64,000 nucleotides of DNA from Escherichia phage ECML-183-2: sequence record OL631481.1, one strand, 5' to 3'. This document shows, in pieces, positions 15,093-36,991 of this stretch (its first letter is position 1; the number at the start of each line of letters is the position of its first letter). Both the position numbers and the translations under genes were made by a program. A model generated the notes under the pieces. That model saw nothing but the letters and a program-made list of their open reading frames with translations, was not told the origin of the DNA and did not search any database.

Positions 15093-15104
15093 ATAGGAGG
15101 GAAT

Positions 15105-21712: not shown

Positions 21713-22240
21713 TTACTCATTTCTACCTCCTTCAATGCTTTGTGCCGTACCATCCCAAGCCATTAGAATGTTTTCCAATAGTTCACGAGGCTCTTTAAAC
21801 CAAACTTCCATTTCATCAAGGATCTCGTCCGTGTCGTAAGTATAACCTGGAACACCAAGTTCACATTTCTTAAGATAGCTTTCTAACCAGCGGTGATAAT
21901 TCTTAACCCATTCATACTGTGCTACCTTTTCTTTTACCCAATCTACACGATCTTTATCATAATGTTGAGTGCCAAGGAAAAAACCATTGTGGAAACTTTC
22001 CTCACCGAAAGGATAAATTGGATCTAAACCATCTTCTTCAAATAACATTTTTAATCTGTTTGATGTAGATTTCTTAGTTTCTGAATTGTAGTTTGTGGTT
22101 ATAAGCCAATCTTCCAAACAACGACACAAACCTTGACGAGAATCCCAAGGAAAAACACAATCTCCGACAGGAGCTTGTTTCGCCCATTTCAACCAGCCTT
22201 TAAAAAAGTTATACAGTATGTAGTCTTCAGTGTAATACAT
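21713..22240 (-). CDS. member of a six-copy paralogous family (FY..WL..GAP ... CHLN ... WVK)
   Basis: Start moved to ATG with AAGGAGG RBS; shares N- and C-terminal family motifs. Confidence 0.5.
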   Translation of the reverse strand: MYYTEDYILYNFFKGWLKWAKQAPVGDCVFPWDSRQGLCRCLEDWLITTNYNSETKKSTSNRLKMLFEEDGLDPIYPFGEESFHNGFFLGTQHYDKDRVDWVKEKVAQYEWVKNYHRWLESYLKKCELGVPGYTYDTDEILDEMEVWFKEPRELLENILMAWDGTAQSIEGGRNE

Positions 22241-22291
22241 TATCTCCTCCTTTACGTATACAATAACACCCCGAAGAACGGGGTGCAACTG

Positions 22292-22903
22292 TTATTTAAT
22301 CTGTTTGAAAATTTCGTTTGGAACGGTACCGTTTAAAATACCTTCTACGATCTCTTGTGCAGATGTGTAAGAGAGTCCAAAAGAAGCTACGCCTAAAATT
22401 GCCTCCTTCAAAGGATCTGGCAGGGGTTCAAAATTACCTGCAACAAAGCCACCTGCACAAGCAGCGCCTTCATCATCCCAGAAAACAACTGCTACATCGT
22501 TACCATGCGAAGTTGTGCGATGTGCAATAACTTCAACTTCGGTGCCTTCTTTAGGAACAGAATAAGAACTGTCCCAAGAATATCTTTCCAAGTCAGGAAC
22601 AAAGATAACCTTTTCACCTACTGGCGGCAGTTCACAACGATAATACCAAGAATTTTTTTCGTTCATTGCTTTATTTTCCTCCACGTCTTCAAAAGTAACG
22701 ATCCAATCGTAGCCGTAAGAAAACGGATATTTTAGATCTAAAGAATAAGTTTGACCTAGATCGTCCTCAACAAGAACCATCCTGTCAAAGTTTGCGATGT
22801 TAGGATTATGTTTAATGACAGGGTATGTTTCCCCTACAGTAAATTGTCCTAAATGGTAAAGTTCATCTCTCCAAGTAATTTGGACATAAGTGCATTGAAT
22901 CAT
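22292..22903 (-). CDS. hypothetical protein (203 aa)
   Basis: ORF track. Confidence 0.5.
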   Translation of the reverse strand: MIQCTYVQITWRDELYHLGQFTVGETYPVIKHNPNIANFDRMVLVEDDLGQTYSLDLKYPFSYGYDWIVTFEDVEENKAMNEKNSWYYRCELPPVGEKVIFVPDLERYSWDSSYSVPKEGTEVEVIAHRTTSHGNDVAVVFWDDEGAACAGGFVAGNFEPLPDPLKEAILGVASFGLSYTSAQEIVEGILNGTVPNEIFKQIK

Positions 22904-22907
22904 AAAA

Positions 22908-23180
22908 TCACCCCCAAGAAATATTTATATATCTTACAATGTTTGCACTGTCTAAAGCCATGTTTGCACCACACCCACGCTCGCGCCAGTAACTAACAAT
23001 ACCTTCACAGATACTCTCTTGTATCTTCTTATCACTTGGCATTTCTAGTATAAGACTTGGGTTGTGGATGTTTATGTTATAATATCCTTCCTCTGCGGCT
23101 TGAGCTACCAATTTACTTACTTTTTCAAAGTACGGGGAATTAGTGGCATCTGCTATTGTTTTTAAGGTTTGTCTATCCAT
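22908..23180 (-). CDS. hypothetical protein (90 aa)
   Basis: ORF track. Confidence 0.5.
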   Translation of the reverse strand: MDRQTLKTIADATNSPYFEKVSKLVAQAAEEGYYNINIHNPSLILEMPSDKKIQESICEGIVSYWRERGCGANMALDSANIVRYINISWG

Positions 23181-23545
23181 TATTCTGCCTCATCATAGAA
23201 GAAATCCAACTCTTGTTCCAGTTGTTTAACTTGATCCTTAACCCACTGTACACGTTTTTCATTAAACATGCAACGTTTTTCCTTACACTCTTGCTCAAAA
23301 GATTTTGCTGTGTTAAACGGGAAAGTTGTATCTAAACCAGCATTTTCAAAACTGGCTAATTGCATACCATAAACAGAATATGCTAAAGAATGATCGGCTC
23401 GAAATTCATCACTTATATACATACGTAGACCTCGGCATAAGCCAACATCAGCGTAACCACTTTCTCTTGGAAAGAGACGGAGGTGTTCTAACCAATTATT
23501 ATAGAAATCTAAAAGAATCCTCTTACACTTCAAATCGATTGTCAT
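23180..23545 (-). CDS. member of six-copy paralogous family
   Basis: LLDFYNNWLEHL ... TFPFN ... RVQWVKDQV; start moved to ATG with AAGGAG RBS. Confidence 0.5.
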   Translation of the reverse strand: MTIDLKCKRILLDFYNNWLEHLRLFPRESGYADVGLCRGLRMYISDEFRADHSLAYSVYGMQLASFENAGLDTTFPFNTAKSFEQECKEKRCMFNEKRVQWVKDQVKQLEQELDFFYDEAE

Positions 23546-23945
23546 AAAAAGTTTCTCCTTCATCGAACAAGTTGGCAAGATTGTTCACGGCAATCTGGGT
23601 GGAAAGAAGACAACTGTTTGCAGACACATAAGCACGAGCTATTTTGTAAACATAGGCTTTCGTATTACAATTGTCTAGGATCGGAAGACTTTCGTCGATA
23701 GCATCTATAACACTAAACATCACATCTAAAACTTTAATTGTAAGTATTGTATCTATATCTTCGTAACCTTTTTCAATCCGACCTGAATAGAAAGCATAGT
23801 CCTCAACAGTTCGTCGTTTAAACTGGCGCATAAAATCGGAACCATCTGTAGTAGAATTGAACAAATTTTCAAAAAATACCTCCCATCCGGCAAAAAGGGC
23901 TGACAGCATGATTAAGTGATCTACAGATTCATTTTCTTGTTTCAT
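23523..23945 (-). CDS. hypothetical protein (140 aa)
   Basis: ORF track. Confidence 0.5.
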   Translation of the reverse strand: MKQENESVDHLIMLSALFAGWEVFFENLFNSTTDGSDFMRQFKRRTVEDYAFYSGRIEKGYEDIDTILTIKVLDVMFSVIDAIDESLPILDNCNTKAYVYKIARAYVSANSCLLSTQIAVNNLANLFDEGETFYDNRFEV

Positions 23946-23953
23946 ATCCTCTC

Positions 23954-24631
23954 CTATTTAATGTTCAATCTAGCACACAAGCGAGAAACAGTTTTAGCAT
24001 CCCACTTACCACCACGTGCTGTTGCGATTTTCTTACTATTGAATTTTTCAGCAATAGTTTTGTAAGGTGTATTTAAATCTCTAAGGATCTCCAAGCGTTC
24101 ACGAAATGTCTCTGCAAAAGCGTCTGCTTTAACAGAATTGTATTCCATTTTTCCTTTTCTACGTGCAGCGGCAGTTTTAGGATTAGCACTGCCTAACAAA
24201 ACACCTTTGCTTTTTGCTACAGCAAGACCCTTTTTAATACGATCAGCAATACCTCTAACTTCTTGTTCAGCCAGAACAGACAGAAGCTGTATAACCATTT
24301 TATCTGCGTCTGGCATGATGGCTATCTTAACATCGATCATTTCTAGAAGAGTTGCTACGGAGGCGTTGTTACGACCCAAGCGGTCAACTTTAGCTACCAA
24401 TAAAGTTGCTCCGGTAGCTTTACACATTTCAACCGCTTTAACCAGTTCCTTACGTTGCTTCCAATCGCCCTTACCAGAATAGTATTCAGAAAATTGACCA
24501 ATAACTTCAGCATCAGGCACAGAGTCTAAGAAGTAACGGATATCGTTCTCTTGGCTCTCCATACCATATTGTGCCTCACCTTTTTTCTGTTTAGAAAGAC
24601 GACTGTAAACAACAAACTTTTTCATAACCAC
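23954..24631 (-). CDS. serine recombinase (resolvase/invertase family)
   Basis: VVYSRLSK with nucleophile Ser, LLVAKVDRLGRN, LAEQEVRGIADRIKKGL, C-terminal RGGKW..TVSRL. Confidence 0.8.
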   Translation of the reverse strand: MVMKKFVVYSRLSKQKKGEAQYGMESQENDIRYFLDSVPDAEVIGQFSEYYSGKGDWKQRKELVKAVEMCKATGATLLVAKVDRLGRNNASVATLLEMIDVKIAIMPDADKMVIQLLSVLAEQEVRGIADRIKKGLAVAKSKGVLLGSANPKTAAARRKGKMEYNSVKADAFAETFRERLEILRDLNTPYKTIAEKFNSKKIATARGGKWDAKTVSRLCARLNIK

Positions 24632-24654
24632 TCCTAAACCATTGCTGTATTCTC

Positions 24655-24683
24655 ACTTTACAAAACGAATAAACACTTGTCAA
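24655..24683 (-). promoter_or_regulatory. sigma70-type promoter for the recombinase gene
   Basis: rc reads TTGACA - 17 bp - TAAAGT. Confidence 0.5.
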
Positions 24684-24695
24684 GGTATTTATTAT

Positions 24696-24908
24696 TTACA
24701 GCCATTCTACTTTTAAGCAGTATTCTTCGACATGTTGTTTACGCTTGTTTTTGTCTATGTAAGTGTATTCAACAAATGTCCCAAGATAATCCTTGTCCAC
24801 ATTGTGTTGGCTATTAATTGGACATTTAGTACGACAAACCCGTTGCCACTGACGAAGAATTACGGCTTTGTTTTTAGGATCAAAGGGATGAGGGTAATGT
24901 GCCTTCAT
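24696..24908 (-). CDS. hypothetical protein (70 aa)
   Basis: ORF track. Confidence 0.45.
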   Translation of the reverse strand: MKAHYPHPFDPKNKAVILRQWQRVCRTKCPINSQHNVDKDYLGTFVEYTYIDKNKRKQHVEEYCLKVEWL

Positions 24909-25232
24909 TCACGCCTCCTGTTTTAGTCGAAAAATATTTTGAATAACGAGAGATGTATAGTTATCACTTAGTCCCATAAGTTCTACTTCCAAGTTTCGAA
25001 TATCTTCCACCGTAGGAGGATATGTTGGTAAAAATGCTTGAGCATTGCCAGATCCAACCTCATTGCTGTAAGCAGTTGTAAAATTGTAAGATACAAAACA
25101 TGAAACACCTTTTTGTCGGTACCCGATTAATCGACGAATACACCAGATAAGAGCCAAACCTATGAGAACACCTCCTAAACCAGCTAACAAGAAGGATAAG
25201 TTCATAATAGCTTCGTTAACAACTGCTTGCAT
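24909..25232 (-). CDS. membrane-anchored protein (107 aa)
   Basis: N-terminal hydrophobic segment LSFLLAGLGGVLIGLALIW. Confidence 0.5.
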   Translation of the reverse strand: MQAVVNEAIMNLSFLLAGLGGVLIGLALIWCIRRLIGYRQKGVSCFVSYNFTTAYSNEVGSGNAQAFLPTYPPTVEDIRNLEVELMGLSDNYTSLVIQNIFRLKQEA

Positions 25233-25242
25233 TCTTTTCTCC

Positions 25243-25542
25243 TTAGTTATGTAAACCCAAATGTGCTACAACTTCTCTACGATAAGATAACTGCATAGCG
25301 ATTTTATAGCCAGGATGAAAACCATTTACATCAATGTCATCAAACCAAACCTCAAACGAACCGTGCTTAAGAGTCATTAAGTTGATATACCATTCGATAA
25401 TATAATGATCGTCAGCAATACCTTCGATGTAAAATTCTCGGCAACAGTGAGATAGGTCTTCACTTGTTTCACGTTTCCAGTCTTTGATAGCACCCTTCTC
25501 TTTGGCTTTATTCAGAATCTTGATCAGGTCTTCAACTTGCAT
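25243..25542 (-). CDS. hypothetical protein (99 aa)
   Basis: ORF track; sigma70 promoter upstream. Confidence 0.5.
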   Translation of the reverse strand: MQVEDLIKILNKAKEKGAIKDWKRETSEDLSHCCREFYIEGIADDHYIIEWYINLMTLKHGSFEVWFDDIDVNGFHPGYKIAMQLSYRREVVAHLGLHN

Positions 25543-25596
25543 GTTTCTCTCCTTTTGTGGTTAATCTTTATATTTTAAATATTGTACCGTCTTCTG

Positions 25597-26010
25597 TCAA
25601 ATAGCCTCTTTCTCTAAAACAACTCTTTGGATCACAACATCTTCAATGTTTGCCAAACAATGACCCAAAGTCAATCCTGCCTTGAAAGGTGCTTGTAGTT
25701 TGGATTCGGCTTCTACGCGAACAGAATGTTCCGCTCCGCACATGGTGTAATCTACACGGTAAACATTTAAACCTAAGAACATAGATTCTTCTTCTTCACA
25801 ACAAGGATTGAGTTCAGCCCATTCCCAAGCATCTCCTTCTAAAGCAAATGGAGTGTTGTAATTGAAGAAAGTGCAGCGCGGATATTCCCCGTTGAAAGAA
25901 TCTTTCAACAGGATATATTTCTTACCATTTGCATGGAAGAGTTCTCCTTTGATAACCTTACCTACAAGGATATCACTGTTAGTGGAACGGGTGCAAATAA
26001 ATTTTTTCAT
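25597..26010 (-). CDS. hypothetical protein (137 aa)
   Basis: ORF track; sigma70 promoter upstream. Confidence 0.5.
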   Translation of the reverse strand: MKKFICTRSTNSDILVGKVIKGELFHANGKKYILLKDSFNGEYPRCTFFNYNTPFALEGDAWEWAELNPCCEEEESMFLGLNVYRVDYTMCGAEHSVRVEAESKLQAPFKAGLTLGHCLANIEDVVIQRVVLEKEAI

Positions 26011-26064
26011 GATTTTCTCCTCTCTGTTTCGATGAGATGATTATGACAAAGACAGATCCTTCTG

Positions 26065-26391
26065 TCAACCAATTATTTCTTCTGCTACACGTTCTTTTAC
26101 CCAGTTCACACGATCCACATTCAAATGACAACGGCTTTTTTCCGCTTCTAAGGTGTACTTTCCAAAATTACTGTTGAAAGGCAACACCATAACCAAACCT
26201 TTGAGGTAGAACTGCTCATGCATTTCATCCAGTACAGGTTCGTATCGTTCGCTTTCTCCTATGTCGTAAAAATCATAGAGGTTCGTGCACAAACCTGTGC
26301 AACGGGTGAACGGTTCACCTTCAGGAGCACCAGCTTCCAACCATGCCAAATACGTGCGGTAAAATGTTAATAGTTCTTCGCTCATTTCCAC
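26065..26391 (-). CDS. member of six-copy paralogous family
   Basis: LLTFYRTYLAWLEAGAPEGEPF ... LPFN ... CHLNVDRVNWVKERVA. Confidence 0.5.
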   Translation of the reverse strand: MEMSEELLTFYRTYLAWLEAGAPEGEPFTRCTGLCTNLYDFYDIGESERYEPVLDEMHEQFYLKGLVMVLPFNSNFGKYTLEAEKSRCHLNVDRVNWVKERVAEEIIG

Positions 26392-26594
26392 TCTCCTTCG
26401 TGATAGTAAACCTCAAAAGAATAGTAAGTGAACATGCTCATTGTAACACCTGCCATTTCTGGATCAAAGGGGGTGTTGTTATACATGTCAACTACTGCCT
26501 GACCCGCTGCTTTGGCATGTGCTGCTGAATCACAGGCACAAACATCTTTCTCCCACGGAAACTTGCCATCATACTTAAGACGGACAATCCACAT
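26382..26594 (-). CDS. hypothetical protein (70 aa)
   Basis: ORF track. Confidence 0.45.
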   Translation of the reverse strand: MWIVRLKYDGKFPWEKDVCACDSAAHAKAAGQAVVDMYNNTPFDPEMAGVTMSMFTYYSFEVYYHEGEWK

Positions 26595-26596
26595 GC

Positions 26597-26824
26597 TTAT
26601 TCCTCCATCTCAAACCATTCAGGGAACACTTTATGGAAGACACGGGTTGTTTCCAAAAGGAATTCCAATTCTTTTTCCAGATCTGCGTTCCAATCGTGCA
26701 CTTTAACATTGATTGCCAATGCACTTGCACGGCGACTTAATTCTTGACAGATTGGATCACGCAGAACTATTGAGTCGTAAAACTGACAAACAGCTTCAAG
26801 TTCATACCAGTTATAATCCGACAT
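26597..26824 (-). CDS. hypothetical protein (75 aa)
   Basis: ORF track. Confidence 0.45.
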   Translation of the reverse strand: MSDYNWYELEAVCQFYDSIVLRDPICQELSRRASALAINVKVHDWNADLEKELEFLLETTRVFHKVFPEWFEMEE

Positions 26825-27150
26825 TATTCATCCTCCTCTGCAATACGATCTCTTACCCAATTAATTCTGTCCACGTTCAGGTGACAGGCATCTGCATCTG
26901 ACTCTAAGACATATGCATCGTAGTTCTCATTGAAAGGGAGTTCTTGATTCAACACTTTATGGTAAAACTGTGCGTGCATTTCATCTGACAAGGTTGTTAT
27001 AATGGGGTTGTAATTACCTCTGTGCACATAATCGAACAAGTTGGCACACAAACCACAATCCCGCCGAAAAGGTTTACCATCAGGAGCACCAACATCAATC
27101 CATGCTAGATAAATTTTATAAAACTCCATCAACCTTGCGCTTGTTTTCAT
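26824..27150 (-). CDS. member of six-copy paralogous family
   Basis: LMEFYKIYLAWIDVGAPDGKPF ... LPFN ... CHLNVDRINWVRDRIA; GAGGTGG RBS. Confidence 0.5.
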   Translation of the reverse strand: MKTSARLMEFYKIYLAWIDVGAPDGKPFRRDCGLCANLFDYVHRGNYNPIITTLSDEMHAQFYHKVLNQELPFNENYDAYVLESDADACHLNVDRINWVRDRIAEEDE

Positions 27151-27388
27151 TTAGCCACCTCGTTAGTTTTTCTTGCTCTTTGTTTGCGCGTTCTAAGCTT
27201 CTGAACTTTAAACAGAGGGAACGAGAATCCCTACCCATGCACAAGCTTTCATCTAAGCTGTGCTCCCCAACCAACCAAAGAGAGTATGTTTGAACATCTA
27301 ACCCATAGTTTCTGTCTTTCCATAATCTCACCCCAAGAACATCAAAAGGAGCTTCCGCGACTAAAGAAAGGAACCGATCTTTATTCAT
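27116..27388 (-). CDS. hypothetical protein (90 aa)
   Basis: ATG with AAGGTGG RBS and sigma70 promoter upstream; 35-nt overlap with next gene. Confidence 0.4.
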   Translation of the reverse strand: MNKDRFLSLVAEAPFDVLGVRLWKDRNYGLDVQTYSLWLVGEHSLDESLCMGRDSRSLCLKFRSLERANKEQEKLTRWLNENKRKVDGVL

Positions 27389-27450
27389 ATTACACCACCT
27401 TACTCACGTTGATAATGTATGTATACCATACATAAAATAAATGTCAAGGC

Positions 27451-27651
27451 TTATCGACACAGATAGTTGTAACGATCTGCTTTATCCTCTGCTTCAGCAA
27501 AGTCAGCAATCAAGGAAGTTTTAAGTTCTTCCAACTCTTTCACCCAAGAGTCGTAATCGTTCTGTGTTTCTCCAATAGTTTGGAGAAAACAATCGTCGTA
27601 GCCAATAGACATGGCTAACTCGATAATACGTTCCAGTTTTTCTTCCATCAC
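27451..27651 (-). CDS. hypothetical protein (66 aa)
   Basis: ORF track. Confidence 0.45.
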   Translation of the reverse strand: MMEEKLERIIELAMSIGYDDCFLQTIGETQNDYDSWVKELEELKTSLIADFAEAEDKADRYNYLCR

Positions 27652-28010
27652 TTCTCTCCTTCTACAGACTTCTGTTTAACATAGAAGTAAGCACCACGAG
27701 CAAGATACAAATCATGTTCAATATCGCTCACAGGAAAACCATTTGGATTTTTAAAACCATCTTCTACAGCCAAAATGAGAGATCGTAAACTGATAGCTAA
27801 CAACTCCATTTGATCTTGTAGTTTTCTATTTTCTGCGTAAAGGTTTTTGCATTTTTGTTCTGCATTTTTCCATTGTTCTAATGCATGATCATAGCGGTGC
27901 ATAAGAATAGCTTTTTCTTGTTCACGCTTAAAAGTTTCTTCACAAATGAAACCTGTGCCTAAACCAGTTTCTTCGTCTTTGACAAACACTTCAACAAAAT
28001 CTTTAGACAT
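27648..28010 (-). CDS. hypothetical protein (120 aa)
   Basis: Track ORF trimmed to ATG with AGGAG RBS just after upstream stop. Confidence 0.5.
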   Translation of the reverse strand: MSKDFVEVFVKDEETGLGTGFICEETFKREQEKAILMHRYDHALEQWKNAEQKCKNLYAENRKLQDQMELLAISLRSLILAVEDGFKNPNGFPVSDIEHDLYLARGAYFYVKQKSVEGEK

Positions 28011-28011
28011 A

Positions 28012-28275
28012 TTATCTCCTATTTGCTTTCGGATACTCCCAACCCTCTGGGAGATCTTCTTTACACATCCACTCAAAAGGCCAGCGACAATAACTGTGCC
28101 ACTTTCCATCGAGATACAAACAATCTTCATCTACTGGTCCACAAGGGTTGATAACTACAACACACCCTTTCGCTCGCCAATATTGAACTATTTCAGGGTA
28201 AAAACAAGAAACGTCGGTCCACTCCCAAATACGTTCATCATTCAGACGGTAGGCTGCTGGTAATGTTTCTTTCAT
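28012..28275 (-). CDS. hypothetical protein (87 aa)
   Basis: Track ORF (GTG) trimmed to first ATG. Confidence 0.45.
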   Translation of the reverse strand: MKETLPAAYRLNDERIWEWTDVSCFYPEIVQYWRAKGCVVVINPCGPVDEDCLYLDGKWHSYCRWPFEWMCKEDLPEGWEYPKANRR

Positions 28276-28279
28276 AGTA

Positions 28280-28516
28280 TTAAACCTGAGCCAAGGAGTC
28301 ACGCCAATTACGGCTATCTCCTTCTCCTAAATACCAGTAATCCGCAGCATTAAAAACTTGATAAGGAATACGCCACGCATAAGCGAAATCTGGAATCTCC
28401 GGTTTATGACTGTAACCATAACGCTCGCCACTCGAATCTGTTGCAATATAATTAACAAATTCAGGAACCTCTAAAATTTCACCTTGATACTCTACACGCT
28501 TGAAGCCATCTTCCAC
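28280..28516 (-). CDS. hypothetical protein, 3' part of a gene split by a homopolymer frameshift
   Basis: GTG-start ORF whose frame joins the upstream ORF if the G5 (plus C5) run at 28524-28528 were one base shorter. Confidence 0.4.
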   Translation of the reverse strand: MEDGFKRVEYQGEILEVPEFVNYIATDSSGERYGYSHKPEIPDFAYAWRIPYQVFNAADYWYLGEGDSRNWRDSLAQV

Positions 28517-28736
28517 TTGTTCCTCCCCCTTCTACCAGAAGGGCAAGAAGTTTGATGTGAGGGCAAGTGAAATCTTGTCCTGGATAACGTGAACGGATAT
28601 CAGTTAACAATGCGATCACAGCATCCGATAACTCTTTATAATCCTCATATCTTACAAATGTGCCTTCTGTCGGATCATCAGGACACAAACGCCAAACATC
28701 GTTGCAGTTTACAGCATAATGTCGCACTTTAGTCAT
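28479..28736 (-). CDS. hypothetical protein, 5' part of a gene split by a homopolymer frameshift
   Basis: Overlaps downstream ORF by 38 nt; improbable C-terminal tail after the G5 run. Confidence 0.4.
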   Translation of the reverse strand: MTKVRHYAVNCNDVWRLCPDDPTEGTFVRYEDYKELSDAVIALLTDIRSRYPGQDFTCPHIKLLALLVEGGGTSGRWLQACRVSR

Positions 28737-28745
28737 AAATACCCC

Positions 28746-29144
28746 TTATCGTTGCGTACAATCAGCTTCTAGAGTAAGAACATTCGTTATTGTTTTATCA
28801 TTTTTTAGAAATGCAAACCAAGCCAAAGTGTCTCGATACTCTGTGCGCATCATTACTACTTCAGTAGTGCCAATAAATTGTTGTGAACCGTACATAGCAC
28901 TACCATCTTTACTTTTTTCTCCTGTGTATTGCAGAATGCCACTCATCAAAGCACCGCCTGAATTTTTAAGGATAAAGGAGTTATCTTTATTAATGACAAC
29001 AGAAGCCATTTTCTTAGGACCAGAAATCACTTCACCTTTCAGATTTTTAACAACCACATCTGACACACACTCATAAACTTGAGACGCACTTGCTGTTCCA
29101 AGTGATGCAATGAGTAACAACAAACCTACGATGATCTTTTTCAT
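28746..29144 (-). CDS. secreted protein with signal peptide (132 aa)
   Basis: MKKIIVGLLLLIASLGTASA signal-peptide-like N-terminus. Confidence 0.55.
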   Translation of the reverse strand: MKKIIVGLLLLIASLGTASASQVYECVSDVVVKNLKGEVISGPKKMASVVINKDNSFILKNSGGALMSGILQYTGEKSKDGSAMYGSQQFIGTTEVVMMRTEYRDTLAWFAFLKNDKTITNVLTLEADCTQR

Positions 29145-29240
29145 ATAAACTCTCCTCTTTGTTTACCCGATGCGCCCCCTGTTGGGCGGAAAGGGTTGTA
29201 CGCAAAATTTTTAGCTCCAATCGTCGGGTGTCCCGACTCC

Positions 29241-29447
29241 TTACGCTTTTAATGTTTTAACAGAATGACAAGCTTTGCAAACAATAACCGGAACAAGTTC
29301 ATCTCCATTATCCGCATAAATCACTGTTTTCTTCATTCTGCCACCACATGAACAATACTCTGTATGATCCGCTGGAATATTAAATATTCCGTAATCACTT
29401 TCATACTGTTTCTTACATATGGACACTGCTTTCGTAAAACAAGACAT
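29241..29447 (-). CDS. small zinc-ribbon protein (68 aa)
   Basis: CSCGG ... CKACH. Confidence 0.45.
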   Translation of the reverse strand: MSCFTKAVSICKKQYESDYGIFNIPADHTEYCSCGGRMKKTVIYADNGDELVPVIVCKACHSVKTLKA

Positions 29448-29449
29448 GC

Positions 29450-29671
29450 CTACTCCGCAAGAACCTTCACTTCGTCAGAGAAGAATACGTAATCACAACC
29501 TTCCCAAACATCTTCTTCAAACCACTCCCATCCCTCGACTTTGGACATTTCTTCTATCGTAACAAAGAATGTTGTCATATCCTCACTAACAAGATGTGCT
29601 TCAACAACAAAAGGAATCTGAACATTCTCAAAACCAACATAACCCAATACATCACAAACTCTAATTTTCAT
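29450..29671 (-). CDS. hypothetical protein (73 aa), paralog of 33785..34015
   Basis: Shared WEW.E..W.G.DYVFF segment. Confidence 0.45.
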   Translation of the reverse strand: MKIRVCDVLGYVGFENVQIPFVVEAHLVSEDMTTFFVTIEEMSKVEGWEWFEEDVWEGCDYVFFSDEVKVLAE

Positions 29672-29672
29672 A

Positions 29673-29861
29673 TTATGCTCCTCTGTAGATTATGTTGGTG
29701 CGTTCACACTCTGCTACCAGCAAGCGATTAGCAATGTTATCCATAGGAACATCAATCTCTACACTCCAGGCATTGATACACACTTCTTCAATCTTTGCTC
29801 CCAACGTTTGTGCGATCAGAGCAACAGCCCCAGCATATTCAAGTTTAATCTCAATTACCAT
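29673..29861 (-). CDS. hypothetical protein (62 aa)
   Basis: Track ORF trimmed to internal ATG. Confidence 0.4.
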   Translation of the reverse strand: MVIEIKLEYAGAVALIAQTLGAKIEEVCINAWSVEIDVPMDNIANRLLVAECERTNIIYRGA

Positions 29862-29875
29862 TTTGCACCTCAAGG

Positions 29876-30106
29876 TTATTTGTCTTGCTTGTATCTTACA
29901 AGGCGATCACACTCCAGGTCAAGAAATTTCTCCGCATTTCGTTCATGTTTGAGCACAATACATTGTTCTTTCCAGTCTGTAGCTCTTTGCTGCGCTGCTC
30001 CTGGGTCAAAATCCCAAAGCCATGCCGCGAAAAGAACAACTACCCAAAGCCATACCGCGAAAAGAACAACTATAACAATTACTAAGAAACTAAACACTAT
30101 TGGCAT
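29876..30106 (-). CDS. small membrane protein with internal 10-aa duplication
   Basis: Hydrophobic core VVLFAVWLW VVVLFAAWLW encoded by a 2x30-bp tandem repeat. Confidence 0.45.
   Translation of the reverse strand: MPIVFSFLVIVIVVLFAVWLWVVVLFAAWLWDFDPGAAQQRATDWKEQCIVLKHERNAEKFLDLECDRLVRYKQDK
30003..30062. repeat. 2 x 30-bp in-frame tandem duplication
   Basis: cccaaagccat[g/a]ccgcgaaaagaacaacta repeated head-to-tail, 1 mismatch. Confidence 0.8.
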
Positions 30107-30411
30107 TGCACATCCTCCTGTGTAGCATGATCTTTTACCCATTTTATACGGGCAGCATTCAAATGCAATAGCCCGTTTCTTTGTGCAAAATCATATTTAA
30201 ACCAGTCTCCGTCATCAAACGGGTATTCTTCAGACAACCCTGCTTCTCGAAATTGCATTTGCATTTCATAATTTAGATCATCGTAACCACCAGTCCAAAG
30301 GTAGAGGCAACTGCACAAACCTTTATCGTGCCAGAAAGGATTATTATCTGGAGCACCAGCTAACAGCCAATTATGATAGGCTTGATAAAATTCTTTAAGT
30401 TCTTCTGACAT
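30097..30411 (-). CDS. member of six-copy paralogous family
   Basis: LKEFYQAYHNWLLAGAPDNNPF ... YPFD ... LHLNAARIKWVKDHA. Confidence 0.5.
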   Translation of the reverse strand: MSEELKEFYQAYHNWLLAGAPDNNPFWHDKGLCSCLYLWTGGYDDLNYEMQMQFREAGLSEEYPFDDGDWFKYDFAQRNGLLHLNAARIKWVKDHATQEDVQCQ

Positions 30412-30609
30412 TTAACCCCCTGTGTACAGTGTTGAAAGATACACAGCAAAAGCATTCTCGGCTGTTTTAACCTCCTCTTCAAGATCTTCACGCTCTGTTG
30501 GCGTTAGCGCATTTCGCACAGCAGCGTCTGCTTCTCGGATTTTTCTTACTAAACGTGAAACATCTTTCAGTTGTTGAAAAGTAGCCATAATCTTCCTCCT
30601 TTTAGTCAA
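30412..30609 (-). CDS. hypothetical protein (65 aa)
   Basis: ORF track. Confidence 0.45.
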   Translation of the reverse strand: MTKRRKIMATFQQLKDVSRLVRKIREADAAVRNALTPTEREDLEEEVKTAENAFAVYLSTLYTGG

Positions 30610-30835
30610 ACCAGTTGTATTCGGAAGGGTAACGAGCGTAGTTTGGCTTGTACCCCAGTCTTTTCATCTTAACAGACATACGAGTGAAGCCAAAGGTTGT
30701 TTTGCCCTTAGACATAAACTTCTTCCCACTCTTCATTGGCTTCTTAGGGTTTTTGATCGTCTGGTGTAACGCTCGCGCAAGCCACAGAGTGTATGCGCTC
30801 GGCACTTGATTAACTTTCATCTTGTTACCTTTCAT
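30602..30835 (-). CDS. small basic protein (77 aa)
   Basis: Track ORF trimmed to ATG with AAGGAGG RBS; Lys-rich. Confidence 0.45.
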   Translation of the reverse strand: MKGNKMKVNQVPSAYTLWLARALHQTIKNPKKPMKSGKKFMSKGKTTFGFTRMSVKMKRLGYKPNYARYPSEYNWFD

Positions 30836-30845
30836 CGAAACCTCC

Positions 30846-31055
30846 TTAGTGAACTTCGTGCCAAGTGCCAAACTCTTCTGCTGATACTTTAGGAACGGCA
30901 TGAGTTTCTCGATATTTGTTTAAAGCTTTCTCAATGGCTGTAGCAAAAACATCTTGTGATTTATAAGGCATATAATAAGAGCGTCCCATGTATGCCACTG
31001 CATCACGTAATTCTTCTGCTTGCTCTTGTGTAACTGTCAATGTGATAGTAACCAT
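30846..31055 (-). CDS. hypothetical protein (69 aa)
   Basis: Track ORF trimmed to internal ATG. Confidence 0.45.
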   Translation of the reverse strand: MVTITLTVTQEQAEELRDAVAYMGRSYYMPYKSQDVFATAIEKALNKYRETHAVPKVSAEEFGTWHEVH

Positions 31056-31354
31056 TATTTCACCTCCGACCAATCAATAGTGATCCACTCGTATGCCCCG
31101 TTCAGATCCATTTCTTTATAAACAATAAGCCCACGCTCACGAAGAATTGCTACTGCTTCATCCATCCACTTCACCTGATTGTAGATCGCCCCTGGGTGGG
31201 TAGGGGAATTATCTAGACCAAAATCAGATGGCGTGAAATTTCTTGAAGAGTTTCCCGCTCGTGCTTCAGCAAAACATGTCTCGATCACTTCTTCAACAGG
31301 GAAGTTGAAGGAAGCTTCTTTTGCAATACGGCGTAACTGTTCAGTCAGATTCAT
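31055..31354 (-). CDS. hypothetical protein (99 aa)
   Basis: ORF track. Confidence 0.5.
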   Translation of the reverse strand: MNLTEQLRRIAKEASFNFPVEEVIETCFAEARAGNSSRNFTPSDFGLDNSPTHPGAIYNQVKWMDEAVAILRERGLIVYKEMDLNGAYEWITIDWSEVK

Positions 31355-31381
31355 CTTATTCTCCTTTCGTTGTGTGAAACA

Positions 31382-31819
31382 TTACAGCAGATCTAATGCT
31401 TTCAACTCTTCTTTCAATGATTCAGGCAGGTCACATTCAATGTCAATCAGAGATAACAAGTGACCAACAATGCCTTCCAGATGTTGATACTCACTATAAC
31501 TTATAAATTCAGAATTGTAAACAGAAACATCCTTAGTTTCTTTCACAACTTCCCCCGCAGACACACACATAAAAAAGTTACGCTCTCCGCGAGCTAACAA
31601 TATCTCCCAACTCCTGAACGGATACTGTCCAGCTTCAATAATATCTCCGCTGTCCAATAAAGTCAATGAGCAAACAGACCCTGATTCACTAACATCTTCG
31701 ACGCGGAAACAAGACCCTTCAATCAAAGCTGCCATTTTGAAATTTTCATCAGAAATCATAGAGAAAGCTTCACATGCAGCTTTGCTTTTGAAACAGTAAA
31801 CAGCATTAACTTTGAACAT
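31382..31819 (-). CDS. hypothetical protein, MFK-family paralog 1 of 3
   Basis: N-terminus MFKVNAVYCFKS shared with two tandem neighbours. Confidence 0.5.
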   Translation of the reverse strand: MFKVNAVYCFKSKAACEAFSMISDENFKMAALIEGSCFRVEDVSESGSVCSLTLLDSGDIIEAGQYPFRSWEILLARGERNFFMCVSAGEVVKETKDVSVYNSEFISYSEYQHLEGIVGHLLSLIDIECDLPESLKEELKALDLL

Positions 31820-31828
31820 AATAGCTCC

Positions 31829-32614
31829 TTATTTTATTACCGCAGTAGGCTCAATACTAACAACACCAATACGCTCATAGATCTCAACAGTAGAAATTGG
31901 ATATTCTTCCTTCATCTTTTTTGCTTCCGTGGCGATCTCTTCATAAGAATGTGACACCAATTGGACATTCATGCCTTTAACAATAGCATAGTGTTTAAAA
32001 TTCGCTGCGGATTCCTCTTGTTTAGGCTCAACAACATCTTTAATATTTTTAAAATAAGGGTTATCGCTTTTGATTAGCAGTGCACAAGCTTCCTTGAACC
32101 AGCCTTCACCTGCTACATGATTTGTATTACATACAAGCCTACGGATTGCTGTTACATCTTGTCCAACCATCTTTGTGATCACGAAAGGATCATCGCCAAT
32201 AAGATCGGAAATTTTTCGGTTTACATTGTTTGTCGTTTGTCCTCCGTCAATATAATTGGCGAAAAGCTTACGATCTTGTTCACTTGCAAACTTATAGACA
32301 CCACCTTCTACAAAGACACAGCCTCCTGTAGGAGAATCTTCATAATCTTCAGGAGTATGTTCTTCAAAACGAGCATAATCCATACAACTTACAAGCTTAT
32401 AACCTTCAGGGAAAAGCCCAGAACCAGCTTCGATGATTTTATTTGTGTCTAATACCTTCACCTTAGATACAGAACCAAGAAAATCAACATCCAAAACTTT
32501 AAACTTGCTATCTTGAATGCAACCTACAAAGAAAGCGTTACCAATACTAGCTTTACCAAAATTCTTTTTGGTATCTTCCGATTTGAAATTATAAATAAAA
32601 CCTACTTTAAACAT
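31829..32614 (-). CDS. hypothetical protein, MFK-family paralog 2 of 3 (261 aa)
   Basis: N-terminus MFKVGFIYNFKSED. Confidence 0.5.
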   Translation of the reverse strand: MFKVGFIYNFKSEDTKKNFGKASIGNAFFVGCIQDSKFKVLDVDFLGSVSKVKVLDTNKIIEAGSGLFPEGYKLVSCMDYARFEEHTPEDYEDSPTGGCVFVEGGVYKFASEQDRKLFANYIDGGQTTNNVNRKISDLIGDDPFVITKMVGQDVTAIRRLVCNTNHVAGEGWFKEACALLIKSDNPYFKNIKDVVEPKQEESAANFKHYAIVKGMNVQLVSHSYEEIATEAKKMKEEYPISTVEIYERIGVVSIEPTAVIK

Positions 32615-32626
32615 AACATTCCCCTT

Positions 32627-33082
32627 TTAAACAAAAGATACGCCGATGGTAGCAACAACCATACGTTTATAAACTTCAACCTCTTCTGTAGGATTAGCCA
32701 TTTTATGCTCTGCTGCTTCTTTCAAAGCTTCTTCATAACTTTCAAATCCAGAAATACAGGTGTCATCAGTCATTACAACATACCACTCTTCTTTTGTTGT
32801 ATCAACAGGTTCTTCTTGGGGTTTTCCACGACCACCACGAACACCACCGTCAACAAAATAATCTATATGAGCAGAATTGATTATGTAACGATCCCCATCA
32901 CTAGCAGTGATAATACCGTCTCTCCCTATCACAACAATTGACAAGATATTACCATTTGCATCAGTGCTCAACACCTCGAAAAAATTCTCTCCAATGATAG
33001 CAGCAATACTGTTATCAAAGGTAGAATATAATCGCATATAGTCTTCATCCTGGAAACGGTAGACATGACCTTCTTTAAACAT
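32627..33082 (-). CDS. hypothetical protein, MFK-family paralog 3 of 3
   Basis: N-terminus MFKEGHVYRFQDED. Confidence 0.5.
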   Translation of the reverse strand: MFKEGHVYRFQDEDYMRLYSTFDNSIAAIIGENFFEVLSTDANGNILSIVVIGRDGIITASDGDRYIINSAHIDYFVDGGVRGGRGKPQEEPVDTTKEEWYVVMTDDTCISGFESYEEALKEAAEHKMANPTEEVEVYKRMVVATIGVSFV

Positions 33083-33536
33083 TGCTCTCTCCTCCTAGTT
33101 CATCATACCATTTCAAAGCGTCTTTTGGAAGCATACCAAAATCTTCTTTTAGTTCTTTTTCAATCTCTTCTTGCATTTCCATCAGCATTTTCAATTGACG
33201 AACTTTTTTGTGCATAGCCACATTTCTTTCATTAAGATTTGTCACTACATTATTTGCACGACTTGGTGGAAATGACAAAGGTTTCACGGGAAGATAATCT
33301 TCAATATTATCTAGTGCGTTACGAAAATTATGATCCAAGAAACGCACATCTACACGATTGTAATCGGCAGCTACAACAGTGAACACTTTAAACGGCACAT
33401 TGGATAAAGTATGTTGCACACAGACAGTACCCATATTACCTTCAATTTTACTGGTAACTTCCAGCAAACCTGTATGAGCACTAACATAATCGTGAACACA
33501 TTGCACATAAGCTGCCAGTATAGTGAATTGTCTCAT
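33075..33536 (-). CDS. hypothetical protein (153 aa)
   Basis: ORF track. Confidence 0.5.
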   Translation of the reverse strand: MRQFTILAAYVQCVHDYVSAHTGLLEVTSKIEGNMGTVCVQHTLSNVPFKVFTVVAADYNRVDVRFLDHNFRNALDNIEDYLPVKPLSFPPSRANNVVTNLNERNVAMHKKVRQLKMLMEMQEEIEKELKEDFGMLPKDALKWYDELGGESNV

Positions 33537-33781
33537 TTTCTACCTCCCCATAATGCTAACATTTTATTGAAAATGGAAACGCGTCGTGCGCGAGATGCCA
33601 TATCATAATTCATTCTTTCCGTCTCTGCAAGAAATTGATCTACGGTAATCAACGCTTCTGTCTTCTCTTTCAGAGTTTGCATATTCATCCATTCACATTC
33701 AGAGTACCAATTATCGAAATACAAACTATCAAGAAGATCCATTGCTGCTTCATTCTGTTGTGGTGTGATCATTGCACACAA
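33533..33781 (-). CDS. hypothetical protein (82 aa)
   Basis: ORF track. Confidence 0.45.
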   Translation of the reverse strand: MCAMITPQQNEAAMDLLDSLYFDNWYSECEWMNMQTLKEKTEALITVDQFLAETERMNYDMASRARRVSIFNKMLALWGGRK

Positions 33782-33784
33782 CCC

Positions 33785-34015
33785 TTAATAGACAATTTCA
33801 TATTCGTGAGGAAAGAAAACATAATCTTCCCCTTCTCGTGCATCTATCTCGTCCCAAAACCATTCCTGCACTTCCATCATCTTCGAGAATCGCACATGAG
33901 CAAGCCCACTGTATTCCACAGTAGCTTCCAACACAAGTGGAAATTTTGCATGGACAAGTCCTTTATAACCACCATCATTCTCAATACGAATTTTCATGCG
34001 TTTCATGTTATGCAT
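33785..34015 (-). CDS. hypothetical protein (76 aa), paralog of 29450..29671
   Basis: Shared EDYVFF segment. Confidence 0.45.
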   Translation of the reverse strand: MHNMKRMKIRIENDGGYKGLVHAKFPLVLEATVEYSGLAHVRFSKMMEVQEWFWDEIDAREGEDYVFFPHEYEIVY

Positions 34016-34217
34016 CCTTCAGACCCTTAATAAAGTAACGACCAACCGGATTCCCTCGGAAGTATTCGTTAATGAAATCGATAACACACGTTTCACTGCC
34101 TGTCACAACGGACGGCTTAAAGTTTTGGAATTCTACAGCTACACGGCTGGCTTTAGCCAGTGCTTGCACACGTGTAGGATCAGTCAAGAACATTGTGACA
34201 GTTTTCAAATTCTTCAT
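34008..34217 (-). CDS. hypothetical protein (69 aa)
   Basis: ORF track. Confidence 0.45.
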   Translation of the reverse strand: MKNLKTVTMFLTDPTRVQALAKASRVAVEFQNFKPSVVTGSETCVIDFINEYFRGNPVGRYFIKGLKDA

Positions 34218-34266
34218 TTCATCTCCTCATTGGCTATCTGTTATGTCGTCCATTATACAAACATCT

Positions 34267-34605
34267 TTATTCAATGCAAGCATTATTTGCATCTTCAATG
34301 CGATCTTTCACCCACTGAAGACGTAACTCGTTGGTATGACACGCTAAACCTATGCACTCTGAAAGGTAATCCATGCAATCTGCATTAAACGGGAAATTGT
34401 AATCTAGTCCTGCACCAATAAACTGGGATTTCATCTCTTGTTGTAGACGAGGTAACAGTTCATCAGGGTATGTTCCCTCTACATACTTAATCAAACATAT
34501 GCACAAACCACTCGTTGTGTGACCTTCTACCTCACCAGCAAGCCAAGCTTTGTAAAACTTCATTAGACGTAAACTACTTAACGGAACATTTTTACTCTCT
34601 TGCAT
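34267..34605 (-). CDS. member of six-copy paralogous family
   Basis: LMKFYKAWLAGEVEG ... NFPFN ... CHTNELRLQWVKDRIE; GAGGAG RBS. Confidence 0.5.
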   Translation of the reverse strand: MQESKNVPLSSLRLMKFYKAWLAGEVEGHTTSGLCICLIKYVEGTYPDELLPRLQQEMKSQFIGAGLDYNFPFNADCMDYLSECIGLACHTNELRLQWVKDRIEDANNACIE

Positions 34606-34944
34606 GACAATCTCCTCTCATCGTTAGCCATCTTTCATGGCAATCATCAATCACCAACATCATACGATCAATCTTAAGGAATTACAATCGAATTATCATA
34701 GGGGATTCCTATCAATTATCCCATATATACCGATTATTTTTGACACCCCATTCTTGTATAAAAAGTAACCCAAAATATCCACGGGGAGAGATTATTTCGA
34801 CACACCCTGTTTCATGGCAATCATGGCAAGAATATCTAATAGAATCAATATCATATGGCAAAAATCATGGCGCATACGTAAGAAGTGCTTAACGCGAATT
34901 TTCGGGCCGTCAGGTCCACGCAGCGACAATTCCCAAATATCATG

Positions 34945-34967
34945 CGAATGAGAATAATTATCATTCG
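34945..34967. promoter_or_regulatory. Fur-box-like palindrome
   Basis: cgaatgagaataattatcattcg; near-perfect dyad, ~13/15 match to TGATAATCATTATCA. Confidence 0.3.
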
Positions 34968-35126
34968 TATTCAATGACTTATGCAAGGCTCATGCCAACA
35001 TAGCGACAAGGTGGGCCACCTGATTATAAATCACACAAACACTTATTTATCAATGGTTTGGCAACTTCATCATATGACGGAACAATGTCAACTAATCCCG
35101 CTCATGACAGACGGACTATTATTTAT

Positions 35127-35145
35127 ATGAGAATGATTATTATTT
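35127..35145. promoter_or_regulatory. Fur-box-like site
   Basis: atgagaatgattattattt. Confidence 0.25.
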
Positions 35146-35379
35146 AAACGTTTATTAACATATAAACTAAAATAAATCAAGAATTTTCTGATTTTATTTA
35201 CGTTTAAGAGAAGGTGCTCAACATCCTACCGGATCGCCGTTGGCAATCCTCGGATATTTACGCCCCCATGATTAAGGTTTATCTCTTTTATAGCTCAACA
35301 TTCCCGCCTGTGGCGGTAACATTTCGCCCCCAAAATTATTGACTTTTATTCTATTATGTGCATAGTGTGCAATGTATCG

Positions 35380-35397
35380 GAATGATGATAATCATCC
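35380..35397. promoter_or_regulatory. Fur-box-like site
   Basis: gaatgatgataatcatcc; ~13/14 match to ATAATGATAATCAT. Confidence 0.3.
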
Positions 35398-36181
35398 TCC
35401 CATTGCCCCCATAATTATTGCCATGCTAATTGTTTCATTACGTAATTATTACAATGACTATTGTTATTGCGCTAATGTTATGATCTTGGTAATTACATAT
35501 AATGCTAATAATAAGCCAGCGCAATAAGTGTAAGCGTCATTACGCTTGCAATTATTGCAAGCTACGCAGTAACAAGAAATAACCATCACCGATGGTTATG
35601 ATTGTTGGGGTGTAGTTGGCTTATTATTAGCTCGCTATGTGTCCGGCATAGCGTGCTAATGATGACTCTGTGAATGATTCGTTTTGTAATGATTTCATTC
35701 AGGCACTATTTTGCTAATAGTTATTATTTTAATGGTTTCGTTTGTTATTGTTCGTTAGTTGGTTGTTTTGTCGTGTTATCGTTATTTTGCTTAGTATTTA
35801 TCATGGTTTGATTGTTTGTCGTTATCAATCATCTTGCTATTATTCCTTTGATTATGATTAGTTTGCTTATTGTTTTATGTTGTTTGTTGGTTAGTTGTTG
35901 CGAACTATTATCAACATTATAATTATGCGCTTATATTGCATAGATAATCATGGGTAGATGATAATGGTTATCATTGCACTAGAAAGGAGGTAAAAGGGTG
36001 TTTTTGATGGTTTGTTGTTGGTTGTTGATCGATTTTAACCGCTCTAAATAGCTCTCTAACAGCCTGTTGCCCTGGGATGTATGGTTATTCGTTTAATGGT
36101 CGATTAGCTCGATACCGTGATTTATTCAGTTTTGTTCTGTGTCGGTTTTTCATAGGCGAAAGCTATCAACATTGTTCGGGC

Positions 36182-36208
36182 AAAAAGAAAGGGCGCTTTG
36201 TGCGCCCT
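36182..36208 (-). terminator. rho-independent terminator closing the cassette array
   Basis: rc reads AGGGCGC-loop-GCGCCCT + TTTCTTTTT. Confidence 0.6.
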
Positions 36209-36223
36209 GGTATGAAATGTTAT

Positions 36224-36607
36224 TTACTGATAAGCTGGATCGTTTGTTATATCAATCCAATGAGATAAATTAATTTTATTTTTTGCTTTCATTTTCTCGA
36301 TCAAACGTTCGGCTAATGTCTCGGAACGAATATAAACGTTTTCGCTAAAATCTTGCCCCGTTTCTTCGTCGATCATCTCACGATATTCGATTTTTCCGAT
36401 AAACGCGTGATTCAGCGCATAAGTTTTACCCGTGTACCAGTTATGCAAATGGATCTCACATTTATAATCATCGCTATACCCTTCGGTTGTTCTAACTTCA
36501 ACCAGGTCGCCTTTAAACACTGATAAGCACCACATAGGATCACGGTCTACAGCGCCGTTAAAGTCTTTACCGTTTACAGTCGCTGCCAGGTTGATGATAT
36601 TGCTCAT
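36224..36607 (-). CDS. hypothetical protein (127 aa)
   Basis: Track ORF trimmed to ATG after promoter; N-terminal track extension runs through leader. Confidence 0.5.
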   Translation of the reverse strand: MSNIINLAATVNGKDFNGAVDRDPMWCLSVFKGDLVEVRTTEGYSDDYKCEIHLHNWYTGKTYALNHAFIGKIEYREMIDEETGQDFSENVYIRSETLAERLIEKMKAKNKINLSHWIDITNDPAYQ

Positions 36608-36653
36608 GGTGATTCCTCGTTTACCGTTTAAAATGATTTGCCCTACGTGATAA

Positions 36654-36682
36654 ATAATAATGCAAGCGTGATCCGGTGTCAA
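36654..36682 (-). promoter_or_regulatory. sigma70-type early promoter (first cassette of array)
   Basis: rc reads TTGACA - 17 bp - TATTAT. Confidence 0.5.
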
Positions 36683-36856
36683 TAGGTAAAATTGTAAAGA
36701 TTTGATAGTTTGTTCCTTTGATGTTTTGTTGTTTGATAGGCGTTAGTTATCAATATATAGCGGGGTCTTCCGGTGATTATCTTCCCCTGCTCCCAGGTGC
36801 CGCCCGTTCAATAAGTATAACAAAAAATAGGACTATTGCAAGCCCTATTTATTATC

Positions 36857-36991
36857 TTAAAACCAGGTGCCAACCGTTTCCAATAGGTCACTGACTACAA
36901 GGACAACACTGATCAGCACATGTTCAACCATGAAAGGGATAAGCGCCAGCGTTGCTACTACGATCCCCATTGTGATGATTACCTTTCTCAT
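36857..36991 (-). CDS. small membrane protein (44 aa)
   Basis: Not in ORF track; hydrophobic; no clear RBS; coordinates hand-derived. Confidence 0.3.
   Translation of the reverse strand: MRKVIITMGIVVATLALIPFMVEHVLISVVLVVSDLLETVGTWF

Follow-up and report, generated by a model that had tools for sequence, protein, structure and literature searches.

Six genes of Escherichia phage ECML-183-2, located within the 64,000-nucleotide stretch of sequence record OL631481.1 that was analyzed here (referred to as the window), were confirmed to be real genes that encode divergent members of a single protein family restricted to phages, which corresponds to PHROG 2510 and is named N4 gp3-like after its homologue from coliphage N4. 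The six open reading frames (ORFs) are all located on the minus strand and are designated p1 (21713..22240), p2 (23180..23545), p3 (26065..26391), p4 (26824..27150), p5 (30097..30411), and p6 (34267..34605), with Shine-Dalgarno-like sequences upstream of each of them. They are part of a long leftward block of small genes from a phAPEC8-like myovirus. The 14 kb around the six genes are 96–97% identical over 90–98% of the length to many Phapecoctavirus phages, including phAPEC8, ECO340P1, and AV125, which are Escherichia phages of the Stephanstirmvirinae and myoviruses of approximately 150 kb, and in the Phapecoctavirus records the six genes are labelled "hypothetical protein". The sequences are already public in this form and there is nothing new at the sequence level; new are the link to N4 gp3, the breadth of the family, the signature of a conserved site, and the dynamics by which chimeras, insertions, and deletions change the set of copies.

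Homology and turnover of the six genes

The original prediction, which was made from the DNA letters, had described six paralogous genes that share an N-terminal and a C-terminal motif block with a variable middle part in between, and all six ORFs were found in place. In BLASTP comparisons among the six proteins, 15 of 15 pairs were significant, with E values between 1e-5 and 1e-41 and identities of 26–51%. The proteins can be aligned across the entire core, whereby the motifs G-L-C, P-F, and R..W-V are invariant, and each of the six contains the full set (8/8) of the residues F10, G33, C35, P71, F72, R94, W97, and V98 (numbering of p3, as used throughout). When the 64 kb were translated in six frames and searched with a hidden Markov model (HMM) of the family, exactly six matches with E values of 1e-32 to 1e-44 were obtained, and no seventh copy was detected in the window by this HMM, the next-best match having an E value above 1. 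All six proteins also matched PHROG 2510, an entry of unknown function, along their entire length (E 1e-25 to 1e-31), and weaker matches were obtained to PHROG 6418 and PHROG 27059 for most of the six and to PHROG 2176 for p3 and p4. These four PHROGs are catalogue entries with no function, structure, or Pfam counterpart. The predicted paralogy was thus corroborated by pairwise BLASTP, by the HMM, and by PHROG 2510, all with significant results, and the motif description as well as the variable middle part agreed with an alignment of 80 diverse family members.

It could be argued that the resemblance is due to chance or composition, or that the ORFs are functionless, decaying duplicates. The small size of the ORFs is all that speaks for this explanation, which is considered refuted and has practically no probability left. 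The alignment demonstrated that the shared motifs are significant, so that the objection of chance motifs does not hold, and the HMM scores of the six genes stand out from the rest of the window, which stays at noise level. Furthermore, the ORFs are intact and equipped with ribosome-binding sites, the ratio of non-synonymous to synonymous substitution rates (dN/dS) is 0.11, the fold predictions are of high confidence, and homologues exist in the thousands.

The dN/dS values were calculated by the Nei-Gojobori method against three relatives, the three comparisons not being independent of each other, and gave a pooled value of 0.108 for the family versus 0.161 for neighbouring genes. Each paralogue is kept by purifying selection, which fits distinct, retained roles. 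Selection is very strong for p5, where the proportion of synonymous differences (pS) to the relatives is 0.25–0.40 and that of non-synonymous differences (pN) is 0.004–0.008. The only paralogue with more non-synonymous than synonymous changes is p4, where the counts are very small.

The copy number in related phages was compared as well. Relatives were found to have five, six, or more copies, and copies shift between near-identical phages by insertion, deletion, and recombination of paralogues. Within the compared region, vB_Ec-G1 has five copies, whereas phAPEC8_ev052 and Schickermooser have six each in a composition unlike that of the window; in phage alia from the sister genus Justusliebigvirus, the corresponding 26 kb contain two members. 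Such shifts in copy number and composition are as expected for accessory genes. The p3 gene gave no blastn match in these three close relatives (vB_Ec-G1, phAPEC8_ev052, and Schickermooser) and is 95–99% identical in other Phapecoctavirus records; it is a single-gene insertion or deletion. A second type of change is found at p6. In Schickermooser and phAPEC8_ev052 the block opens with two overlapping tandem paralogues, A (114 amino acids) and B (127 amino acids). Protein and DNA alignments showed that p6 consists of residues 1–74 of A, followed in frame by the last 38 residues of B. The A-derived part (34384..34605, minus strand) comprises helices 1–3 and the B-derived part (residues 75–112; 34267..34383, minus strand) helices 4–5 of the predicted fold, with the crossover lying within the shared AGLDYN(F/L)PFN codons at approximately 34381–34413. 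A different A/B chimera is present in vB_Ec-G1, where the crossover is at the PLSS codons.

The p3 protein shares 41–45% identity with members from unrelated phages versus 30–38% with four paralogues of its own genome, which means that the paralogues are old or were horizontally acquired. Overall, the source of diversity is old divergence, gene flux, and recombination and not rapid change at the residue level. The phAPEC8-like phages thereby exemplify how an accessory family evolves, in that each old paralogue is retained under purifying selection, whereas gene insertion and in-frame crossovers within conserved motifs reorganise the set of copies. As a separate observation, two segments on the minus strand, 26382–26594 and 28280–28736, are divergence hot spots among phages that are otherwise 96–99% identical. 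Their nucleotide identity to relatives is 70–87%, which for 28280–28736 refers to two of the three relatives only, and this pattern points to mosaic replacement of single small genes.

Distribution, conserved residues, and predicted fold

An exhaustive profile search over 1.84 billion representative proteins, clustered at 50% identity, yielded 1,830 clusters at E ≤ 1e-3 and 837 clusters at E ≤ 1e-10. Many of the homologues are 200–344 amino acids long, with the domain repeated two or three times in tandem, and a few carry N-terminal hydrophobic segments or a zinc-ribbon-like C-terminal tail. Among the distant members in which an N-terminal hydrophobic segment is fused to the family domain are P0039, P0041, and P0121. 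A tblastn search with p3 led to 250 phage records, in all of which the gene is annotated as hypothetical. These records belong to the Stephanstirmvirinae (with 1–8 places per genome), N4-like Schitoviridae, Rhizobium Autographiviridae, Straboviridae, Vequintavirinae-like phages, and a jumbo Erwinia phage. Arrays of copies and tandem-domain proteins recur in unrelated phages, an example being the four copies in tandem downstream of DNA ligase in a T4-like Yersinia phage. In a sample from IMG/VR, one copy was present at 14 of 15 loci and four copies at the remaining one.

The family is nearly confined to phages of Proteobacteria, and the hosts named in the listed phage records are Proteobacteria throughout. 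A pattern-seeded scan of a genome collection of 185,579 species, carried out with a narrower alignment, identified one locus, which is part of a prophage early operon where the family gene comes after the genes for the CI repressor, Cro, and an antirepressor. Only 1 of 72,556 plasmid records contained a member, and this record is a phage-plasmid. The respective stretch of the E. coli plasmid NZ_CP148392.1 (44180–54461) also carries Phd/Doc, DUF968, a gene of the PAPS-reductase family, DUF2829, and dut, and its family member is a 159-amino-acid protein with an extra region. Altogether, the family makes up one of the more extensive parts of the "dark matter" among phage proteins, with a confidently predicted fold, no solved relative, and no Pfam entry.

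One of the phages with a member is N4, whose gp3 (YP_950481; NC_008720, 1214–1528) was recovered by the family HMM with an E value of 1.8e-19. It has the same length as the window proteins and the same invariant GLC, PF, and R..W motifs. In N4 the gene belongs to the early operon, where gp1 and gp2 precede it and gp2 is its direct neighbour. A single copy is present in N4 and in most N4-like contigs, whereas the window contains six. In two metagenomic N4-like contigs the family gene is likewise located downstream of genes matching the Pfam families Phage_N4_Gp1 and Phage_N4_Gp2 and upstream of RNAPII. The position of gp3 is called early on the basis of the described organisation of the N4 early region (PMC4496689). 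The rightward small-gene block of Schickermooser opens, as annotated, with the A and B copies (gp001 and gp002). From the position of the N4 homologue and from their own placement in the small-gene block, we infer that the six genes of ECML-183-2 are expressed early. No function for N4 gp3 was found in the literature. As N4 is a model phage, a function found for its gp3 could carry over to thousands of genes.

Conservation was computed on the 80 diverse members. Invariant among them are F10, G33, C35, P71, F72, R94, W97, and V98, while S4, L7, Y11, L34, E56, Q60, F61, L66, and N91 are conserved in at least 90%, and N37, N73, Y79, E82, and H89 in 60–85%. The individual values are 100% for Arg94, 95% for Gln60, 93% for Asn91, 90% for Glu56, and 81% for His89. 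None of the repeats in the tandem-domain proteins has lost Cys35, which is located at the N-terminus of helix 2, although the adjacent Gly and Leu differ in some of them. Variation, including that in length, is found mainly in the loop between helices 2 and 3 and the start of helix 3 (residues 42–55) and in the loops around helix 4. An observation that concerns the same motif comes from phage alia, whose 194-amino-acid member (14938–15522) consists of the domain and a C-terminal extra region of approximately 80 residues; here GLC is changed to NIC, such that the Cys stays and the Gly and Leu are gone.

An AlphaFold2 model of p3, for which an alignment of 22 sequences served as input, has five helices with a mean predicted local distance difference test score (pLDDT) of 91.2 and a predicted template modeling score (pTM) of 0.84. 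The p6 chimera was modelled with the same five helices (pLDDT 90.9). The computed isoelectric points (pI) of the six proteins are 4.5–5.1, and the family domain is thus predicted to be an acidic unit of approximately 100 residues with five helices.

The original prediction had also stated that no enzymatic motif is recognisable, and comparisons with Pfam, NCBIfam, PADLOC, PDB sequences, and PDB folds detected no known enzymatic or structural family. No match above threshold to Pfam, NCBIfam, or PADLOC was obtained for the six proteins and the multi-domain homologues, and when the 80 members were scanned singly against Pfam, there was no family that was matched by more than one member. PDB sequence profiles gave nothing significant (best E value 0.38), the 80-member profile had no match in the PDB at E values up to 10, and no solved structure in the PDB is similar in fold to the family model. 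Good matches, with template modeling (TM) scores of 0.7–0.84, were obtained in BFVD, a database of predicted viral structures, and all of them are uncharacterised phage proteins that are themselves family members. They come from Burkholderia phage JG068, Rhizobium phage Palo, Achromobacter phage Axy12, Delftia phage RG-2014, and PhiW-14, as well as from Klebsiella phage KP8, Pectobacterium phage Wc4, and BcepSaruman. Word-indexed protein searches with the 80-member alignment and the consensus returned few matches and no informative names. Literature searches with the PHROG identifiers and the N4 gp3 accession, and for the family among papers on N4 early genes and on anti-defence in Phapecoctavirus, found nothing.

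Weak BFVD matches to proteins of related Pakpunavirus phages, together with a report on PaoP5 (PMC13083879), led us to consider a kinship with Dap2 and Dap1, which are binders of Lon and ExsA (PMC13083879). These are likewise small early proteins of a virulent myovirus. However, they are unrelated to the family by sequence and profile, since the family HMM gave an E value above 6 for every ORF of PaoP5 and hhalign a probability of 2.1% for Dap2, and the candidate was rejected.

Candidate functions of the family

The reading that we tentatively favour, at somewhat below an even chance, is that the family serves early interference with the host, be it in take-over or in counter-defence. It is suggested by the restriction to phages, the early-operon placement in several unrelated phage types, the small size and acidity of the proteins, the gain and loss between close relatives, and the recurrence of arrays and tandem-domain fusions. 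According to this reading, the six proteins would be early-expressed, cytoplasmic host-interference factors, in which a rigid, conserved scaffold bears a polar/aromatic site made up of Cys35, Glu56, Gln60, Tyr79, Glu82, His89, Asn91, Arg94, and Trp97. This site would recognise a single class of ligand or partner, while the loop between helices 2 and 3, helix 4, and the adjoining loops would give each paralogue its own specificity, so that multiple copies would provide the phage with a broader range of targets. If the family does act in counter-defence or take-over, this would have a bearing on the host range of therapeutic E. coli phages from the phAPEC8-like group.

The original prediction had proposed a function in which diversity matters, such as binding of different host targets or countering of different defences. 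This holds insofar as there are six real, maintained paralogues with a variable middle part, but not as regards residue-level diversification, for which no selection was seen, nor multiplicity as such, given that 14 of 15 IMG/VR loci are single-copy. Pure diversification of targets does not agree with the approximately ten polar residues, including the invariant Cys, that are conserved family-wide and indicate a shared site. Since unusually many polar residues are conserved on a conserved scaffold, the alignment suggests one shared site, which could be a pocket for a ligand or partner or an active site, amid surfaces that are specific for each paralogue. We infer that the conserved polar residues cluster in space. 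The further premise that the six copies are maintained in a streamlined genome had to be given up, as the genome is that of a myovirus of approximately 150 kb with roughly 270 annotated genes, many of which are small genes of unknown function.

Several observations weigh against host interference. None of the members resembles any known anti-defence protein in PADLOC or among PDB folds, and a scan for promoters and terminators gave nothing above the shuffled background. Several anti-restriction families, such as ArdA and KlcA, occur on plasmids, and the present family is nearly absent from them (1 of 72,556). The low dN/dS of 0.108 does not indicate a residue-level arms race, and no residue-level diversifying selection was seen among orthologues from the three relatives, where counts are small and p4 might be an exception. 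Most sampled phages have a single copy, so that the function does not inherently depend on multiplicity. The literature provided no direct functional evidence for any member, N4 gp3 included. Finally, so many conserved polar residues together with an invariant Cys would be equally compatible with the site of an enzyme or a cofactor.

The latter point leads to a different explanation, namely that the proteins are small enzymes or metal/cofactor proteins, which use a site formed by Cys35, His89, Glu56, Glu82, Gln60, and Asn91 to modify a host or phage molecule. The paralogues would then differ in their substrates and some of them may be inactive, for example p2, which lacks the His. The invariance of Cys35 in the 80 members and its retention in all tandem repeats would make sense for an enzyme, as would the high conservation of His89, Glu56, Gln60, Asn91, and Arg94 and the strong purifying selection. 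However, no enzyme family and no enzyme fold was found to resemble the domain, and an enzyme would usually be larger than a five-helix bundle of 100 residues. In addition, His89 and Cys88 are not universal, as p2 has Met at position 89 and p1 and p5 have no Cys88, and an architecture with multiple copies and tandem domains is more typical of binding modules. We regard an enzymatic or cofactor role as unlikely.

It could also be that the role is intrinsic to the phage and has no host target, for example that of a cofactor in transcription or replication like N4 gp1 and gp2. The gene order in the early operon of N4 and the N4-like phages, downstream of gp1/gp2 and upstream of RNAPII, would fit such a role, and the orthologues are strongly conserved. 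On the other hand, members are present in T4-like, phAPEC8-like, and T7-like phages, in a lambdoid prophage, and in a phage-plasmid, which follow different transcription strategies, and, unlike core regulators, the copies differ even among near-identical phages as a result of gain, loss, and recombination. A phage-intrinsic role is considered quite unlikely.

By analogy with Acb2, Tad1, and Tad2, the proteins could instead act as sponges for small-molecule immune signals such as cyclic nucleotides or ADP-ribose derivatives, with each paralogue tuned separately. Like these, the family members are small, putatively early phage proteins in which aromatic residues and Arg are conserved, and nucleotide pockets typically contain residues such as the Arg, Trp, Phe, Tyr, Gln, and Asn that are conserved in the family; the phage restriction, the several paralogues, and the tandem domains would suit a sponge as well. 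Nevertheless, this remains pure analogy, and there is no detectable sequence or structural relationship to Acb2, Tad1, or Tad2. Structures of sponges such as Acb2 are in the PDB, and none of the solved structures resembles the family in fold or in sequence. A sponge function seems improbable.

The host-interference reading has a further analogy, though no more than that, in early proteins of virulent phages that act against restriction or in host take-over, for example T7 Ocr (gp0.3) and ArdA. The common features are small size, acidity (pI of 4.5–5.1 for the six proteins), and a place among the first genes of an early block. The family differs from them in that it resembles no solved structure in sequence or fold, from ArdA in its near-absence from plasmids, and from a DNA-mimic surface in having a conserved polar/aromatic core site. 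It is possible, albeit doubtful, that the invariant Cys/Arg/Trp site of the N4 gp3-like family represents a biochemical function new to phages, be it that of an early take-over or counter-defence effector, a small enzyme, or a ligand binder, whose specificity would be made modular through arrays, tandem fusions, and chimeras.

Individual genes and their surroundings

The p1 ORF (21713..22240, minus strand) is a family domain fused to a C-terminal extension. Its core (21905..22240) comprises 112 codons and matches the family HMM with an E value of 1e-33 and PHROG 2510 over residues 4–121. In the three close relatives, the counterpart of the core is a separate gene of 112 amino acids that ends with ...QYEWG*. 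The extension, which comprises the last 65 residues (21713..21904), belongs to PHROG 19887 (E 1e-44 to 1e-45). The PHROG 19887 part is otherwise a separate, overlapping ORF of 67 amino acids, which is annotated as a coding sequence of its own in relatives. DNA alignment with vB_Ec-G1 and phAPEC8_ev052 showed that one G was lost from a run of G at approximately 21907–21909, which changed GAATGGGGTTAAG to GAATGGGTTAAG, and this deletion of one nucleotide joined the family gene in frame to the PHROG 19887 ORF. Directly upstream of the p1 ribosome-binding site, a G+C-rich, terminator-like hairpin with a T-rich tail is located at 22266..22286 (minus strand). It is a consensus match alone, whereby an equivalent terminator is annotated in Schickermooser.

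The p2 gene encodes 121 amino acids and has the sequence AAGGAG 8 nt upstream of its ATG at 23545. Its product is without the GAP..PF block, and Met replaces the usual His89. For p3, a GTG at 26391 and an ATG at 26385 are available as start codons; the ATG, which gives a protein of 106 amino acids, is more likely because the orthologues have this length. The product of p4 (108 amino acids) is the nearest paralogue of p3, with approximately 50% identity, and p4 orthologues are present in all three close relatives (3/3). The p5 gene encodes 104 amino acids. Its 3' end overlaps by 46 nt with an ORF of 88 amino acids (29876–30142, minus strand), the product of which contains a strongly hydrophobic stretch that is probably transmembrane.

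Two to three genes downstream of p5 and p6, respectively, there is one member each of a second pair of paralogues (29450–29671 and 33785–34015, minus strand), which belong to PHROG 15322 and share 37% identity. Their arrangement may reflect an ancient duplication of a segment with several genes. Between p5 and p6, three adjoining paralogues on the minus strand (31382–31819, 31829–32614, and 32627–33082) have the common N-terminus MFKxxxxYxF, whereby the module of these genes is present twice in 31829–32614. There was no Pfam match for the three. Some of their counterparts in relatives are labelled "goF mRNA metabolism modulator", but this is weakly supported, as only 31829–32614 matches the goF PHROGs, with an E value of approximately 1e-6. 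A T4 GoF-like identity was also considered for the six-copy family and was rejected, since the goF annotation sits on the orthologues of 31382–33082 and none of the six proteins matches the goF PHROGs. In the middle of the small-gene block, 23954–24631 (minus strand) encodes a serine recombinase (Pfam Resolvase, E 5e-18); in several relatives the counterpart is mis-annotated as "methionine ABC transporter ATP-binding protein", in others it is named DNA invertase/resolvase.

Upstream of p6, which is the first gene of the block, approximately 2 kb (about 34650–36900) contain short ORFs only. Five copies of the T-rich direct repeat TTTGATGGTTTGTTGTT and several terminator-like hairpins are found here, and a sigma-70-like site with 11 of 12 matching positions is located at 36682–36654. 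Just upstream of p6 there is, moreover, a 20-nt repeat at 34628–34647 and 34805–34824. This part of the window may be a regulatory or intergenic region. Scans for tRNA genes and repeats upstream of the block gave nothing notable. Further away, the plus strand carries two adjoining paralogous ORFs at 56194–56541 and 56541–56846, which are 44% identical (E 2e-17) and unrelated to the six-copy family.

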